This document shows, piece after piece, positions 45,759-51,647 of a stretch of 64,000 nucleotides of DNA (the first letter of the stretch is position 1; each line of letters begins with the position of its first letter). A program made the position numbers and the translations under genes. The notes below the pieces were generated by a model. It made no database searches. It was not told the DNA's origin and worked only from the letters and a program-made list of their open reading frames with translations. Origin of the DNA: Acidimicrobiales bacterium (GTDB taxonomy: Bacteria > Actinomycetota > Acidimicrobiia > Acidimicrobiales > Bog-793); NCBI GenBank assembly GCA_035533595.1, contig DATLTN010000032.1, positions 184 through 64,183 on the forward strand. The letters run 5' to 3'.

Positions 45759-45841
<83 letters not shown>

Positions 45842-46002
45842 CCGCGGGTCACAGACATAAGTGACCCACCCGCGGCGACAGAACTCGTCGCTGAGGTACC
45901 CACATTCTGCCGATGGGCTGTCTCAGTCCATCGGCAGGATCGCGTCAGGGCTTGTGCCGCGATCACAGACGCGGCGAGGTGGAACTGCTCTGCCGGGGGG
46001 CC

Positions 46003-47634
46003 TCAAGCTCCCGGGCGGTGGTCGGCGAGGCTCGTTCGTCGCCGGCGGGCTCGCTCGGTGACCGCCTCGACGTCTCCCTCGGTCTCGATCTCCCGGAAGG
46101 CGCGCAGCTTGCGGATGTTCGCGGCCATCACCAACAGCGCGCAGAACAGCGACTGCGCGACGACGCCGCGGACGCGTCGCCGTGACGGGTCGCCGAGGGC
46201 CTCGTGCGCTCCGTCTTTCAGGAACCCGTTCACACCCTCGATGGTGTTGCGACAGGTCGCGTAGCGGGACCGCCACTCCTCGGTGCCGAAGGCGAGGCGT
46301 TGGCGATGACGGGCCCCGATGTCGGGCGCGATCGTGATCGAGGCCTGCTGACAGCATCGAGGTGCGATCTCCGGCGGAAAGAGCACCTTTGTTGTTCCAT
46401 CGCGGCGAGTGCGCGAGGCGGGCCGTAGCGGACAGGAGAGGTGCGGCGTGGTTCCGACGGCCGGGCAGGAGAAGCGCTCGTAGCCGTCCACGTCGGGACC
46501 GGACTTCACGCGCAGTCGCCACTCGGCCCGGGCCGCGATGCGCGTGGCGTACTCCTCGTCGCCGATGCGCTTGCCTCGGTGGTCCGCGGTGGCCTGGACG
46601 AGGACCGCCGGGATCGCCGGACAGCACCAGGCGCCTTCGACCAGGAGCGCCCCCTGGCTGTTCGCCTGGACGCCGAGCTCGTCTCCCCGGTAGTCGAAGA
46701 CCGGGGTGTAGCCAAGGGCGCGGACCGGCAGGTGGAACACGTCGGCCCGCGCCGAGGAGTAGGCGCGGTCCGCCCCGAGGAAGCCGCTGCGATGACCATG
46801 GGACTGCGCCGCCGCGAGCATCCTTGCGCCGGTCCCTCCGGGATCGACGCCGGGACGCGAGAGACAGAGGCCGACGACGAGGCTCGGATGAGCCACCGGG
46901 CGCCCCGGCGGCGTCGCCATCACCACGATCGTCGCCTCGAGCGCCCAGGCCACCTTTCCGCGGACGCGCCCCTTGTGGTCCTCGACCCCTCGGTGGTCGC
47001 CCTCGCGCACATACCAACCGCCGTCGGGATCAGATGCACAGAGCCCGCTTCTCCGTGACGGCCCCCGGCTGTAGAGGGGGACGGGGGTGGCGTCGAGGCC
47101 GACGGCGCCGTCAAAGAGGGCCCGCTCGTGGCCTTCTTGCAGGGCGAGGGTCGCGCCGAGCAGGCCGGCGACGATCCCCTCGAGCGCCCCCCGGCGTCGC
47201 AGGTGCTCGGCGGGCGCGACGCTCTTTGTCCTCGCCTTCGCCACATCGACTGGGAGCCGGCGGTTCTTCGGAAGTCCTTCGGGGTCAAGGGCCGAGCAGA
47301 TGCGGCCGAAGAGGTAGCGCACGGTGCGGTAGCGGGCGAGGAAGGCCCGCCGGGTCGCGGCCTCGCCGGAGATCCCGAGCCGAGTGCGGACGGCCGGTGG
47401 GAGTCGGCGCCACAACAGCTCGGTCGCCAAGGAGAGGTGCAGCGGCCGCTCCTCGAGTGCGAGGAGCACGAGGGCGACGAGCAGCGCCTCGCTCGAAAGC
47501 GTCCTCGGCCGCCCGGTCGCCGTTTCGAGCTCGGCTTCGATCGCCGAGCAGACCCCGGAGCTCGCGACGATCTCGAGTGCGAAGGTGACGAGCCCGGGGT
47601 CGAGCCGACCGGTGAGGCCGGGGATCTCGCTCAT
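46003..47634 (-). CDS. DDE transposase-like protein (IS4/IS5/IS1182 superfamily-like), 543 aa
   Basis: GRPRTL N-terminus; VGLDATP (D), LGADRAYS (D), RNTIEGVNGFLK (E); C-terminal RRVRG...AANIRKL; Cys-rich insertion. Confidence 0.75.
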   Translation of the reverse strand: MSEIPGLTGRLDPGLVTFALEIVASSGVCSAIEAELETATGRPRTLSSEALLVALVLLALEERPLHLSLATELLWRRLPPAVRTRLGISGEAATRRAFLARYRTVRYLFGRICSALDPEGLPKNRRLPVDVAKARTKSVAPAEHLRRRGALEGIVAGLLGATLALQEGHERALFDGAVGLDATPVPLYSRGPSRRSGLCASDPDGGWYVREGDHRGVEDHKGRVRGKVAWALEATIVVMATPPGRPVAHPSLVVGLCLSRPGVDPGGTGARMLAAAQSHGHRSGFLGADRAYSSARADVFHLPVRALGYTPVFDYRGDELGVQANSQGALLVEGAWCCPAIPAVLVQATADHRGKRIGDEEYATRIAARAEWRLRVKSGPDVDGYERFSCPAVGTTPHLSCPLRPASRTRRDGTTKVLFPPEIAPRCCQQASITIAPDIGARHRQRLAFGTEEWRSRYATCRNTIEGVNGFLKDGAHEALGDPSRRRVRGVVAQSLFCALLVMAANIRKLRAFREIETEGDVEAVTERARRRRTSLADHRPGA

Positions 47635-48401
47635 CGGCTCCCCAGCGCGAGCCGCTCGCGAAGGGCCGCCTTGGACTGCGGTGCAGCAGGGACGTGGCGT
47701 GCGTAGCGCAAGAGGGAGCCCACCTCGTCGATCCCCGCGAGACGGACCAGCTCCGCGAGTGCGGTCCCCGCCGCGAGGTGGTCACAGACAAAGCTCGATC
47801 GGCAGCGACCCGCCGACAGCCTTGGGGCTGTTGGATCAGCGACGATCCGGTCGCACAGATCGGTGACGAAGTTCTTCTGGGTTCGGTCTGCGCCGCCGGG
47901 ACGGAAGAGAAAGCCACCCCCTGCTGCGCTCGCGAGATCGACGGCCCTCTTCTGCCAGGGCGCGCCGACGGGCACCCGGCGACCGGCGACGGTGACGGTG
48001 ACGAACCTTGCGTTGGCGGCGACGTCACCTCCTCTCAGCGCGACGAGCTCGCCGGGGCGCAGCCCCGCCCCGATCCCGAAGCAGATGATCGCCAGTGCGC
48101 TATTGGCCTTCGCGACATGGCGCTGGGACGAGGCGATGCTGAGGAGCTCCGCGCGCTCCGCGCTCGTGTAGGGGGTGACGGCACCTGAGCTGGGAAAGGG
48201 CGTGCCGACGCGACGCCGACGGCTGCGGCCGGGCGAGGACAGGAGCACGCTGCGATAGGTGCCCCGCGTGGACGCCGCCCGGCCGGGGAGGCCGCGCACG
48301 ACGAAGGACTCGACGACGTCGGGGTCGCTGAGCGCCGTCTCGAGCCCGTGCGCGAGGGCGAAGCCGAAGAAGCGCTCGGTCAGTCCGGCCCGCGTCTCCA
48401 T
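47631..48401 (-). CDS. short, divergent tyrosine recombinase-like protein (256 aa)
   Basis: GAGLRPGEL (R), GRCRSSF (second R) and LLRY (Y) retained; both canonical His positions replaced; ATGA overlap with the transposase. Confidence 0.72.
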   Translation of the reverse strand: METRAGLTERFFGFALAHGLETALSDPDVVESFVVRGLPGRAASTRGTYRSVLLSSPGRSRRRRVGTPFPSSGAVTPYTSAERAELLSIASSQRHVAKANSALAIICFGIGAGLRPGELVALRGGDVAANARFVTVTVAGRRVPVGAPWQKRAVDLASAAGGGFLFRPGGADRTQKNFVTDLCDRIVADPTAPRLSAGRCRSSFVCDHLAAGTALAELVRLAGIDEVGSLLRYARHVPAAPQSKAALRERLALGSR

Positions 48402-48434
48402 CTCGCTTGCACGTTAGTAATATCAAGCTAGAAG

Positions 48435-48812
48435 ATGATGGATGCTGGGTGGGTGGAAGAACTTGACCGCCGGGGGGCGATCCTCGCCGAGATCGCCGAG
48501 ATCGGCCCGGTCGTGCCGGGATCGCTCGTCGCGCGTATGACCCGCTGCCAGAACCCCGGTTGTCACTGCAACGCCGATCCGCCCGAACTGCACGGCCCCT
48601 ACTGGACGTGGTCCCATCGACGCGGGGGCCGCCAGGTCACGACGAACGTCTCCGCCGAGGAGGCCGAGCGACTTCGCCCGCTCATCGCCGCGGACCGCCG
48701 CCTGCATGAGCTTCTCCACCAGCTCGAGACCCTCGGCGCAGACGAGACCGTCGCGCGTAACCGCCGAGTCGTCGTGGGGTCACAGCCCGAGGAAGCCGGG
48801 GCGAAGCGTTGA
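48435..48812 (+). CDS. DUF6788-like small Cys/His protein (transposase-associated)
   Basis: GSL...RCQNPGCHC...HGPYWTWS...GRQVT motif. Confidence 0.75.
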   Translation: MMDAGWVEELDRRGAILAEIAEIGPVVPGSLVARMTRCQNPGCHCNADPPELHGPYWTWSHRRGGRQVTTNVSAEEAERLRPLIAADRRLHELLHQLETLGADETVARNRRVVVGSQPEEAGAKR

Positions 48813-49555
48813 GCAGGCCATCAGATTGCCTGGCCAGAGACTTTCGTCGCTGACCCTCTCTGGTGCGCGCTCCGCACGACCCGCGCTGGCGAGGACCGAC
48901 AGCGACGGGCCTCCGGTCCGCTTCGTGGTCGGAGCACGCCGGGCAGGGGAACATCCGCTCGAGGTGGCCGCCGCGGTCCTCGCGGGCGCACTTGTCGAGC
49001 GCCGAGACGCGACGGGCTGCTCGGCCGCGTCGACGCGTTCGCACCGGGCGCGTCGCGGGGCGCTTGGTCGCTGGCACGAAACCGGCGCATCGTGCGGCCT
49101 CGAGAGTCCGCGCCCAAGCAACAGCCGGGCATTGGGACCAGTGCGACCGGAGCCAGAACGTGCGGAGGCGTGGTTCGGAAGCTTCACCTGAGCGATCCGT
49201 TCTTCCGAACGGCCGGCGCTCGCCGTCGAGCTGCGCACTGATCGACCCGCACTCAACGAGCGCGCGGGTCGGCGAGCTGCGCCGACGTCGTGTCCCACAG
49301 GGCCTCGCTGACGTGCCGCGCGAGATGCCCTCGAAAGGGGACGACCTAGATCACCTTCGGACCCCCGTGAATCCCCTCACGATGGCCGATTTCCATGGTG
49401 TGTCGCTGCTTGGATCCTGTCTATGACTTTTGCTTGCCCGATGAACCTGGCGACGCTCTGGCCATCGGGCGGCTCGCCGCCTGTCTCGGGAGATCCGTCA
49501 TCTCCTGATCGTCGGGCGGCGTGCTCCCCGGAACGGCGACGCCCCGCTCAGGTCA

Positions 49556-49652
49556 TCGGGGCGGACGCCGCGAACGACGAGCTGCGCCGCGCAACTCGGG
49601 CCGAGCGGGGACGTTCGAGTTCTGCCGGACCCTGGCGGAGGGTTGTGGGCGC
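49556..49652 (+). repeat. dispersed structured repeat, copy A (3' part only)
   Basis: 28 bp identical to copy B (49608-49635 = 51799-51826); 26 bp identical to copy C (49561-49586 = 52907-52932). Confidence 0.9.
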
Positions 49653-49868: not shown

Positions 49869-51314
49869 CTACCAGATCGGGATCTGCGGGTTCTTCTTCC
49901 CGGTGTCGAACTCACCCTGGTTCCAGTTGGTCATCACCTGTTTCATCGCAGCCGTCGTATTGCCCGCTGAGGCGACGGCGAGTGGTTCCAGTACCGCGCC
50001 GTTGCCGTCGTCGATCTTGAATCCCCAGGAGACCGAGCCGTAGTACTGGCCCTTTTGGACACCGTCGATCGCGTGTGCGGTGGTCTCGAAGGTCATCTCG
50101 GACTTCTGGGGGTTCTTTTTGTCGCCCGCCGCGTTTGTCGCACCGGGCATGTTGGGCTTGTCGTAGAGCTTCGCGCTCCTTTCGGCGGTCTTCTTGAAGA
50201 TGAGGCCCTTCTTGTAGCGGTAGCCAAGCTGATAGTTGCTCGCCGTGCCCTGTTTCTGGGCCTCTGGGCTCATGTCGAGCTTGCTCATAGGCGTTGCGGT
50301 GATGCCTTGCTTGTCGCCGAGGTTGGGAGCCCCGTAAATCGGGTTGTTCATCTTAATATCCCGGTCGATATGGCTCTCCCCTTCGGAGCGTTGCGCTTTG
50401 CGCTTCTGTGCAGGCATCTGGGTTGTACTACCGGATTCGTAATCCTTCCGGGCACTGATGTCGTAGTTGGTGCCCCTCTCGATCTTCTTCGCTTTCTGGA
50501 TCAGTCCGATCTTCGTCGCATTGACTTTGCTGTTCGGGATGAACTCGAGCTCGATCTCTGCGCCGTCTTTGACCGGGCCGTAGTTGTTCGTCTGCCAGTC
50601 GCCACCGCTCGTCTGGACAGCGCGGTGAATGACCGTCCGTCCGATTGTGCTGCTCCCCTGTGCGACGTGGGTGAGCTCGTGCGCGACGAGCTCCTTACCC
50701 CTGGGAGACGACAGGTCAAACTCGCCGCTACCAAAGAAGACGTTATTTCCATATGTAAACGCCCGGGCACCGAGTTTGCCGCTCAGTTCGTGCGAATCGG
50801 TACCGTCGTGCACCCGGACATCAGAGAGATCGGCTCCCGTCGCCCGCTCCACCGCGGGACGGATTCCACCGTCCAGGGAGCGCCCGCCCCTGATTGCGGA
50901 GTGCAAGCGACGCTCAAGCTGGACCGGCAACGGAGCGCCAGACTCGCCTCCGCTGAGCCTCAGGGCGGGGGTCGCCTCGGTCGTTGCGCGCCGGACGGTA
51001 GTTTCCTCCCCCCTGTGCATGACGCCCGGCCGGCCGGAACTGCTTGCACCCCGCGCTCTTGGGCCCTCGAGATCGGCGACGACAGCACGTGCAACATCAT
51101 CTGCGTTGCGCTCATGGTCGCTGCCAGCGTCCCCGACGAGGATGTTGGATGATCCGGGATCGTGTCGATTCTGGAGTAGCGCGGTAACGGCGCGGTTGCC
51201 GACAGTTCGTTGGAGCATGAGCACGGACCGCTCGCCTGAAGCGATCTGGTCGAGCGGGCCCGCGGCCGGGAAACGTCGCGCGCTCGTCGGAGCATTGTCA
51301 CGTCGATTCGCCAT
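49869..51314 (-). CDS. DUF4157 (eCIS core domain) protein with variable C-terminal effector-like domain
   Basis: LQRTVGNRAV, DLSDVRVH, ARAFTYGNNVFF, AHELTHVAQ (HExxH); Lys/Asn-rich, lower-GC C-terminal domain. Confidence 0.85.
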   Translation of the reverse strand: MANRRDNAPTSARRFPAAGPLDQIASGERSVLMLQRTVGNRAVTALLQNRHDPGSSNILVGDAGSDHERNADDVARAVVADLEGPRARGASSSGRPGVMHRGEETTVRRATTEATPALRLSGGESGAPLPVQLERRLHSAIRGGRSLDGGIRPAVERATGADLSDVRVHDGTDSHELSGKLGARAFTYGNNVFFGSGEFDLSSPRGKELVAHELTHVAQGSSTIGRTVIHRAVQTSGGDWQTNNYGPVKDGAEIELEFIPNSKVNATKIGLIQKAKKIERGTNYDISARKDYESGSTTQMPAQKRKAQRSEGESHIDRDIKMNNPIYGAPNLGDKQGITATPMSKLDMSPEAQKQGTASNYQLGYRYKKGLIFKKTAERSAKLYDKPNMPGATNAAGDKKNPQKSEMTFETTAHAIDGVQKGQYYGSVSWGFKIDDGNGAVLEPLAVASAGNTTAAMKQVMTNWNQGEFDTGKKNPQIPIW

Positions 51315-51647
51315 CCACCGCTGCTGCCGCAAGACGCCCAACGTCTCCCACCTCGGCGCATGAGTCTAAAAAATGTTCAGCGCGGCACAGGGCACCGCAC
51401 TGACGCGGATGGTATCGCGGAAGGTCGGTCAGCGGTAAGGAGAGTTGTTCCGTCCGCCGTGGAGTTGGAAGTCAGACGTTCATCGCCTCCGAAATCGGTC
51501 TCGACCTCCCCACCAGGGCATACGCGGTGGTAGCGGGCTGACCACGTGTTGGTCCGTCCCTGATGCGCCTTGAGGGTGTGCGGGAACAGAACTTCGTACC
51601 GAACGACGCTCGACGCCGCGGCAATAGCCGACCCGATCCACGGTTCG

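Follow-up and report, generated by a model that had tools for sequence, protein, structure and literature searches.

Architecture of the locus

A stretch of 64,000 nucleotides from an Acidimicrobiales bacterium (lineage Bog-793; GenBank assembly GCA_035533595.1, contig DATLTN010000032.1, positions 184 to 64,183 of the forward strand), in the following referred to as the window, contains a tRNA-Leu(CAA) gene that is followed immediately by two coupled genes, one for a protein with the Asp-Asp-Glu (DDE) triad of transposases and one for a protein resembling tyrosine recombinases. An earlier note on this DNA had described the pair as a possible two-enzyme mobile element occupying positions 46003–48401. 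The linkage of the two genes holds, the proposed extent does not: the element spans 3011 bp (45846–48856), includes a third gene and is an autonomous insertion sequence with imperfect terminal inverted repeats (TIRs) of about 17 bp. As laid out below, it is a member of an apparently undescribed, large family of soil Actinomycetota whose elements very probably home to the 3′ ends of tRNA genes by DDE transposition.

The transposase gene (46003–47634, minus strand; 543 amino acids) overlaps with its start codon the stop codon of the gene for the tyrosine-recombinase-fold protein (47631–48401, minus strand; 256 amino acids; INT in the following) in the sequence ATGA, and both frames are intact, just as the earlier note had it. 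The INT gene is separated by a divergent intergenic region of 33 bp (48402–48434, as given by the open reading frame (ORF) coordinates) from the third gene, which is transcribed in the opposite direction and encodes a DUF6788 protein of 125 amino acids (48435–48812, plus strand; Pfam PF20586, E = 3.5e-25). Back-to-back promoters are presumed to lie in these 33 bp; a promoter and terminator scan did not find a sigma-70 consensus there, a result that is uninformative in DNA of such high GC content. When the three genes were compared with those of an 83%-identical element on a Logan contig (L021), the ratios of non-synonymous to synonymous substitution rates were 0.20 for the transposase, 0.27 for INT and 0.25 for the DUF6788 protein, which indicates that all three genes are under purifying selection.

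Two lines of evidence define the borders of the element. The L021 contig can be aligned with the window by blastn from about 45848 through 48856, and contigs assembled from three sequencing runs of the source soil, in which 97–99% of the sampled words of this DNA are present, start, branch or break exactly at 45846 and 48856. Read inward, the termini are GGGTCACAGACATAAGT at 45846 and GGGTCAGCGACGAAAGT from 48856 and agree at 13 of 17 positions. The statement that the pair lacks obvious terminal inverted repeats was therefore mistaken. A TIR consensus of GGGYYAnCGACAGAACT emerges for both ends from 51–54 distinct copies of the element. The right end, on the side of the transposase gene (45846–46002), has its TIR (45846–45862) embedded in a 7-8-7 palindrome, GGGTCAC-AGACATAA-GTGACCC (45846–45867), which is followed by a second, internal copy of the motif CGACAGAAC near 45874–45890 and then by a 14-bp stem. 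The consensus of right ends likewise contains two CGACAGAACT units, the second of which lies about 24 bp inside the terminus and is confined to this end. The left end (48813–48856) has its TIR at 48840–48856, contains the sequence CAGCGAC-N4-GTCTCTG and terminates with ...GTCGCTGACCC, a border on which the blastn alignment and the branching of contigs agree.

Elements of the family measure about 3.0–3.2 kb and carry three conserved ORFs, arranged as DUF6788 (minus), INT (plus) and transposase (plus) almost without exception across some 78 loci taken from GTDB species genomes, most of them soil metagenome-assembled genomes (MAGs) of Acidimicrobiales, Streptosporangiaceae and other Actinomycetota; the same gene order recurs on independent metagenome contigs. 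A second clade, the proteins of which are only 28–33% identical, has the same three genes, the 4-base overlap of start and stop codon and the tRNA neighbor, so that the co-occurrence of the two genes, which the earlier note had proposed to check in other genomes, is borne out across the family. This second clade is large, with more than 6800 clusters at 90% identity among 8000 candidates scored. A profile search against 1.84 billion cluster representatives yielded 3032 clusters at the 50% identity level with E ≤ 1e-3 and 827 with E ≤ 1e-30. Clustering at 90% leaves about 2000 relatives of the transposase, without a name or termed 'hypothetical' throughout, and relatives of INT number at least 1167, which are named 'integrase' at best. 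The distribution is patchy: of 61 relatives from the order to which the bacterium belongs, 25 contain the family, and in the phylum as a whole it was found with E ≤ 1e-30 in at least 7 of 401 genomes, a lower bound given that three candidates per genome were scored. A distant branch is represented by locus L107 on plasmid NZ_CP108260.1 of Streptomyces sp. NBC_00055 (199770–202915), where a transposase of 609 amino acids (33% identical) has retained a coupled upstream INT-like partner of 329 amino acids, while a helix-turn-helix (HTH) regulator takes the place of DUF6788; all of these genes are 'hypothetical protein' in RefSeq, and no tRNA gene is present within the 8-kb locus that was fetched. 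A search of the full-text literature returned no description of the family, and neither Pfam nor NCBIfam holds a family that covers the transposase or INT (ISfinder was outside the scope of this comparison). The claim that the pairing belongs to no named family thus agrees with what we find.

Target sites and mobility

The tRNA-Leu(CAA) gene of the window (45759–45841, plus strand; Rfam RF00005, 60.5 bits; ARAGORN places its end at 45843) points with its 3′ end toward the transposase side of the element, so that the adjacency to a tRNA 3′ end seen in the earlier note is correct. Its discriminator base is A45841, and the five bases between tRNA and element, ACCGC (45841–45845, plus strand), correspond to tRNA positions 73–77, i.e., the discriminator, CCG in the place of CCA, and one further base. 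The assignment of this pentamer as the tRNA-side copy of a target-site duplication (TSD) is in line with the register found throughout the family and with the ACCGC at the far end of the element in soil-run contigs described below.

To what extent this position is typical became clear from 75 right ends that were located in the family and oriented on the transposase gene. At 59 of them, the T-loop motif (the reverse complement of TTCRA) lies either 21 nt (53 ends) or 22 nt (six ends) from the end core, and ARAGORN called a full tRNA at 39 of these 59, always facing the element and covering 22 anticodons including that for selenocysteine. One further right end (L082) also has a full tRNA. Eight others adjoin the left end of another copy, with the TSD in common, four run off the contig and three (L038, L079 and L059) adjoin only an 11–14-nt tip of a tRNA 3′ end. 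None of the right ends examined, apart from the four that leave the contig, was found elsewhere than at a tRNA or tRNA-derived 3′ end or at another copy, and tmRNA does not occur as a target among the loci. There is one orientation throughout, with the transposase-side end toward the tRNA. The TSD comprises 5 bp and coincides with tRNA positions 73–77 (the discriminator, CCA or its stand-in, and one more base); as the duplication covers exactly these positions, the tRNA stays intact. All five bases match in 30 of 56 copies and four of five in a further seven, compared to 1% in a cross-copy control, and several of the apparent mismatches are one-base register shifts. A sequence logo of 54 distinct targets reveals conservation of T-arm positions 51–63 and, less strongly, of C72 and C74, while the acceptor stem is otherwise variable, as are positions 73 and 75–77. 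In tandem arrays, neighboring copies have one pentamer in common, as is predicted for repeated insertion at one site.

At seven loci (L026, L037, L041, L042, L060, L061 and L062) the right flank consists of only the 3′ half of a tRNA, cut at the anticodon loop, and resembles the att remnants left by islands that integrases drive. Next to one copy of the element (L022:2942–4416), an ORF of 335 amino acids with a weak Phage_integrase match is accompanied by a partner of 156 amino acids; the two may belong to another mobile element that has been stacked onto this site.

Evidence for mobility was obtained at several levels. One complete MAG chromosome harbors four copies with 100% identical transposases in addition to a frameshifted fifth copy, and all four intact copies reside at tRNA or tRNA-derived 3′ ends. 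For the element in the window, the three soil runs (X1, X2 and X3) document several allelic states. A 3068-nt contig from X1 consists of 23 nt of the 3′ end of a second tRNA (CGGGTTCGATTCCCGTCGCCCGC; the site is called tRNA-X here), TCTCT, the element without any differences, TCTCT again, and GGTGCGC, which is the right flank in the window. The same tRNA-X end is joined directly to TCTCTGGTGCGC in a 52-nt contig from X1 and X2, representing the empty site. The tRNA-Leu site is empty in X1, where the tRNA is followed directly by TGCTCCCGC, the same sequence as at the beginning of MAG contig C44, and it is occupied in X2 and X3, where the left end of the element is followed by ACCGC-TGCTCCCGC, completing a perfect duplication. 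C44 itself begins exactly with CACCGC and the native sequence downstream of tRNA-Leu (C44:1–31). In X3, a right end also follows a third tRNA 3′ end, at a site that is empty in MAG contig C69 (C69:37332–37380). Taken together, the run contigs show that at least three tRNA sites are used in the population and that at least two of them are polymorphic. The ends, the duplications and the target preference, which the earlier note had suggested to derive from multi-copy and empty alleles, are defined, with a 5-bp TSD at positions 73–77, targets at tRNA 3′ ends and two empty sites.

These states also bear on the contig that contains the window. The pentamer beyond the left end of the element, TCTCT (48857–48861, plus strand), does not match the ACCGC at the opposite end, and the soil-run contigs identify it as the duplication belonging to tRNA-X. 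Most likely, this contig combines flanks of two copies, the left from one and the right from the other, and is either a mis-assembly through the 3-kb repeat or a real recombinant. A decayed older end just outside 48856 was considered as the source of the unmatched duplication; nothing convincing was found, and the right flank is that of the other tRNA site. Downstream of this second tRNA site, at 49556–49652, the contig depth is elevated about threefold in all three soil runs. Elsewhere in the MAG (C6:960–1141), a right-end remnant of 105 bp (84% identical) stands directly after a tRNA-Gly(TCC) gene, following TCCAA; no transposase gene is present there, and the remnant is a fossil or a solo end. 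Further along in the window (49869–51341, minus strand), a protein of 490 amino acids is encoded that contains an eCIS_core domain of the DUF4157 type (E = 9e-26), with no genes for contractile injection systems nearby.

The transposase and its recombinase-fold partner

The DDE triad and the cysteine-rich insertion reported for the 543-residue protein were both confirmed. D181 (in LDATP), D289 (in GADRAY) and E466 (in RNTIEG) are invariant across both clades, as is K473, and the long insertion that separates the second aspartate from the glutamate contains four conserved cysteines (C338, C390, C401 and C428). The canonical signature of the IS4 superfamily reads Y-(2)-R-(3)-E-(6)-K; the motif around the catalytic glutamate found here, Y458-x3-R462-x3-E466-x6-K473, is one residue longer. 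Matches to transposase families are confined to the group of IS1182, IS4 and IS5 and fall below the family cutoffs: the C-terminal part of the protein matches Pfam DDE_Tnp_1_6 with 22.3 bits (cutoff 25.1), and its C-terminal 125 residues match the NCBIfam model for IS1182 (NF033551) with 30.8 bits (cutoff 270). Among 24 members of the family, five and four match DDE_Tnp_1_6 and DDE_Tnp_1, respectively, all below the cutoff, and no Pfam transposase domain was detected in ten diverse representatives. A sequence-profile search of the Protein Data Bank (PDB) with the transposase found nothing. An AlphaFold2 model (predicted local distance difference test score, pLDDT, of 74) begins with a helical domain that comprises about 170 residues and is predicted well; when the model was submitted to Foldseek, no significant match to a PDB structure was obtained and none to Tn5, the best hits being P-element transposase and the cores of retroviral integrases with E values of 0.2–5. 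Going by the sequence matches, the transposase is probably related to the IS4/IS5/IS1182 group, albeit remotely.

INT adopts the two-domain fold of tyrosine recombinases according to both profile and structure comparisons. While matches to the Phage_integrase and XerD families are weak, a profile search retrieved XerA/XerD with E = 1.9e-4, and the AlphaFold2 model (pLDDT 77), which has a single N-terminal three-helix domain, found exclusively tyrosine recombinases among its top Foldseek matches, namely Cre and XerA (probability 0.99–1.0) as well as XerH and the integrase of Tn1549 (0.85–0.99). It had been stated beforehand that INT keeps the two arginines and the tyrosine of the active site and has lost the histidines of the HxxR and LGH motifs, and this is accurate: R115, R201 and Y233 are present in the window copy, G198 and I224 replace the two histidines, and A139 stands at the position of the β-hairpin lysine, which leaves a degenerate hexad R-A-G-R-I-Y. 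These losses are not peculiar to the window copy. In an alignment of 78 family members with XerA and XerD, the β-hairpin lysine (Lys-β) is replaced by A, S, R or G, the second-motif histidine (His-II) by G, S, R or A and the third-motif residue (His-III, histidine or tryptophan) by I, L or V, in all sequences, and the complete catalytic hexad R-K-H-R-H/W-Y of active tyrosine recombinases (Pfam PF00589) is absent from the family. In clade 2, the one with more than 6800 clusters, the first arginine (Arg-I) has in addition given way to I, M or Y and the nucleophilic tyrosine to I, V or L. Exceptions with open frames occur in clade 1, too: L023 and L066 have a phenylalanine in place of the tyrosine, and L072, which has a histidine in place of Arg-I, nevertheless sits between perfect TSDs. 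Residues that are conserved everywhere (GAGL, R141-x-VPV, R-x-R-S-S-F and AGI) would, judging from the alignment with XerA, lie on elements of the fold facing the DNA. On this basis, the designation as a two-enzyme element finds no support, and we conclude that INT serves as a subunit that binds DNA without recombining it, probably the one that selects the target.

The DUF6788 protein, a family that is not mentioned in any paper returned by a full-text literature search, combines a C-terminal helix with four residues that are invariant in 63 sequences (C38, C43, C45 and H53), forming the pattern C-x4-C-x-C-x7-H-G-P-Y, i.e., a CCCH arrangement reminiscent of zinc fingers followed by GPY. Its likely role is that of a regulator that binds zinc, or else of an additional accessory protein that contacts DNA.

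Target selection, alternatives and related systems

The observations are best explained by a site-specific DDE insertion sequence in which a catalytically dead recombinase has become a DNA-binding helper, probably the target selector, and we assign this reading as a whole a probability of roughly 0.6. Its individual parts are not equally firm. There is little doubt that the element is a DDE element homing to tRNA 3′ ends: terminal inverted repeats and a duplication of fixed length (5 bp) are the footprint of DDE strand transfer, and the idea that INT resolves or circularizes DNA by tyrosine chemistry finds no support in ends of this type. Of the roles that had been listed for INT, targeting of DDE transposition or help in DNA binding are the ones that fit best. 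That INT is specifically the target selector we consider somewhat better than an even bet, by analogy with the system discussed below. Tentatively, and with slightly less confidence, we propose a minimal protein-guided system that makes do with ends of 17 bp and two or three small proteins, in which the dead recombinase would read the universal geometry of T-arm and acceptor stem and an IS4/IS1182-like transposase would insert the element exactly after position 77.

In the mechanism favored here, the transposase would bind the CGACAGAACT units, of which the right end has two and the left end one, hence the asymmetry of the ends, and would catalyze both cleavage and strand transfer, the stagger being 5 bp. 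INT, the product of coupled translation, would no longer recombine DNA and would instead serve as a DNA-binding subunit specific for sequence or shape. Most likely it would read the dyad-symmetric and universally conserved T-arm (GGTTCGAAYCC), or the DNA of T-arm and acceptor stem, at a distance of 11–21 bp from the insertion point and thereby dock the transpososome at a fixed distance with the right end toward the tRNA, much as TnsD and TnsF do for Tn7-like elements. The divergently encoded DUF6788 protein would probably act as a regulator or as an additional DNA-binding accessory. Repeated insertion at one tRNA would yield head-to-tail arrays.

The nearest parallel known is offered by Tn6022, a Tn7-like element that depends for its site-specific insertion on TnsF, a tyrosine recombinase with a disabled active site that binds comM DNA (Faure et al. 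2023, Mol Cell, PMC10293859). Set side by side from their descriptions, Tn6022 and the Tsy element on the one hand and the family described here on the other resemble each other in fold and presumed role: in both cases a disabled protein with the fold of a tyrosine recombinase is encoded beside the transposase genes of a DDE transposon that generates target duplications. TnsF directs insertion to one conserved site in a fixed orientation, and INT may do the same by analogy. The differences are nonetheless substantial. Tn6022 needs TnsA, TnsB, TnsC and TniQ in addition to TnsF, whereas the element has one transposase and no AAA+ or TniQ partner, and none of its three genes matches a Tn7 family in Pfam or NCBIfam. 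TnsF comprises 498 amino acids with N-terminal zinc fingers, tandem core-binding (CB) domains and a partial catalytic domain, whereas INT, with 256 amino acids, pairs a single short domain at the N terminus with a catalytic domain that is complete, if degenerate. Finally, the target of TnsF is a single protein-coding gene, comM, which is disrupted, whereas the target here is the 3′ end of any tRNA, which remains intact.

The strongest competitor assigns INT to the ends of the element, as an architectural subunit for end binding or synapsis that recognizes the terminal palindromes, while the tRNA would be read by the long helical N-terminal region of the transposase (residues 1–170) or by the DUF6788 protein. 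It has some appeal, since the right-end GGGTCAC-N8-GTGACCC and the left-end CAGCGAC-N4-GTCTCTG resemble core sites of tyrosine recombinases, the transposase does possess a well-predicted helical domain in the region concerned and DUF6788 is kept in the element as strictly as INT. The palindromes are weak in the largest subclade, however, where their arms comprise 4 bp, and the one case tested by experiment in which a DDE transposon employs a dead tyrosine recombinase concerns target selection (PMC10293859). The distant Streptomyces branch, which has kept the INT-like protein, exchanged DUF6788 for an HTH protein and has no adjoining tRNA in the 8 kb fetched, is neutral in this respect. We regard this arrangement of roles as unlikely, albeit one to be taken seriously.

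Considerably less probable is that INT of clade 1 has remained a weak tyrosine recombinase that resolves cointegrates or Holliday junctions or forms or opens a circular intermediate, in which case two chemistries would be at work in the element. The presence of R115, R201 and Y233 in the window copy, and of their counterparts in most copies of clade 1, would be compatible with such an activity, and the TnsF homolog of the Tsy element both keeps and needs an active tyrosine site (PMC10293859). Against this stand the family-wide absence of Lys-β, His-II and His-III and a sister clade that, devoid of Arg-I and tyrosine, maintains the same architecture and tRNA association, as well as the clade-1 copies with an exchanged tyrosine (L023 and L066) or Arg-I (L072, with its perfect TSD). 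Furthermore, no joined-end form was encountered in the soil-run sequences. A circular intermediate had been considered on account of the likeness of ends in L021; the end copies are only about 86% alike, though, and the junction reads right end, CATGT, left end, which identifies it as a tandem re-insertion with a common 5-bp TSD, as at eight other loci. An RNA guide was likewise discarded as a candidate: Rfam returned only the tRNA and a sub-threshold YrlA match, and inspection by eye, without a systematic covariation test, revealed no match to the T-loop in the non-coding region of the right end. Lastly, we attach next to no weight to untargeted insertion, with copies next to tRNA genes either surviving selection or reflecting general hotspots of mobile DNA, for although tRNA genes are known hotspots for integrases and several copies do lie beside tRNA 3′ halves resembling island att sites, the single-base register at 59 of 75 ends, the uniform orientation across 22 anticodons, TSDs that always cover positions 73–77, tandem re-insertions at the same five bases and the tRNA-associated position of every intact copy in the multi-copy chromosome speak against it.

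Several points weigh against a site-specific DDE element with INT as its target selector, or qualify it. Which protein reads the tRNA gene is a matter of what we infer, and both ends carry palindromes resembling recombinase core sites, in 7-8-7 form at the right end, such that INT may bind the ends instead of, or in addition to, the target. In clade 1, including the window copy, Arg-I is kept in 87%, the second arginine in 96% and the tyrosine in 86% of the sequences, and residual chemistry is conceivable, if improbable. Structure comparison does not tie the DDE fold to Tn5 or IS4, and it is sub-threshold sequence matches that place the transposase in the DDE_Tnp_1 clan. About 20 targets are 3′ parts of tRNAs without a full tRNA call, reflecting either insertion into fragments or later disruption of the tRNA. 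The copy in the window is itself flanked by unmatched pentamers, ACCGC on the side of tRNA-Leu and TCTCT on the other, and contigs from metagenomic runs demonstrate presence and not absence.

Comparison with other known systems further delimits the family. IS1182 elements and the IS4/IS5 group (DDE_Tnp_1 clan; NF033551) have in common with it the DDE triad, a long insertion between the second aspartate and the glutamate, a motif of related type around the catalytic glutamate (Y-x3-R-x3-E-x6-K here, one residue longer than the canonical form), short TIRs and small TSDs; they provide the sole transposase matches in the databases, all of them weak and far under the family cutoffs. The element differs from them in having three genes instead of one, in its strict specificity for site and orientation and in the lack of a Tn5-like structural match. 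IS1182 elements consist of a single transposase ORF between TIRs and measure about 1.3–2 kb, as opposed to the three ORFs in about 3.0–3.2 kb found here. Tn7-like elements and CRISPR-associated transposons (CASTs) of types V-K and I-D are DDE transposons that also land in a fixed orientation just downstream of tRNA genes, where insertion is safe. They do so, however, with transposases of the TnsB/Mu type and TnsC, rely on TniQ/TnsD or Cas12k with its crRNA as selectors and insert tens of base pairs downstream of one particular tRNA gene, whereas the present element uses every tRNA and position 77/78. Tyrosine integrases of phages, integrative and conjugative elements and genomic islands that integrate into tRNA genes are similar with regard to the recombinase fold, the preference for the T-arm and 3′ part of the tRNA and the preservation of the latter, but they act by conservative recombination at identical att cores in one specific tRNA and leave neither TIRs nor TSDs. 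In the element, by contrast, INT has a degenerate set of catalytic residues, and the traces left by insertion are of the transposition type: instead of the identical att core without TIRs or TSDs that marks Tn554, RIT elements and classical tRNA-integrating elements, we find TIRs, 5-bp TSDs and 54 different target 3′ sequences. Among eukaryotes, the Dada transposons (Kojima and Jurka 2013, PMC3706591) are DDE elements that are strictly specific for small-RNA genes including tRNA genes; their transposase is unrelated, their insertions fall within the RNA gene and no recombinase-like partner is known to be involved. What is new is the way in which a type of transposase, a type of selector and a target are combined, while the principle of a site-specific DDE transposon with a co-opted selector is known.

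To our knowledge, a precise choice of site is very rare among bacterial DDE transposons, and the well-understood ones that make it, Tn7 and the CASTs, need four or more proteins. Here, insertion at a single base and in a single orientation is achieved by one transposase with one or two small partners, and the target gene is left undamaged. Genomes offer tRNA 3′ ends in 40–90 copies each. Should INT indeed be the selector, the system would constitute a compact scaffold for targeted DNA insertion, a natural 'safe-harbour' machine that could be used at every tRNA gene of any bacterium. In the soil Actinomycetota, annotation of the family as 'hypothetical' or 'integrase' has created a blind spot for mobile elements that comprise thousands of 90% clusters in soil metagenomes and that cause breaks and mis-joins of assemblies at tRNA loci, the contig containing the window being one example. 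If INT selects the target, the domestication of a recombinase into a selector would have happened more than once, and the family would represent an independent second case after TnsF.

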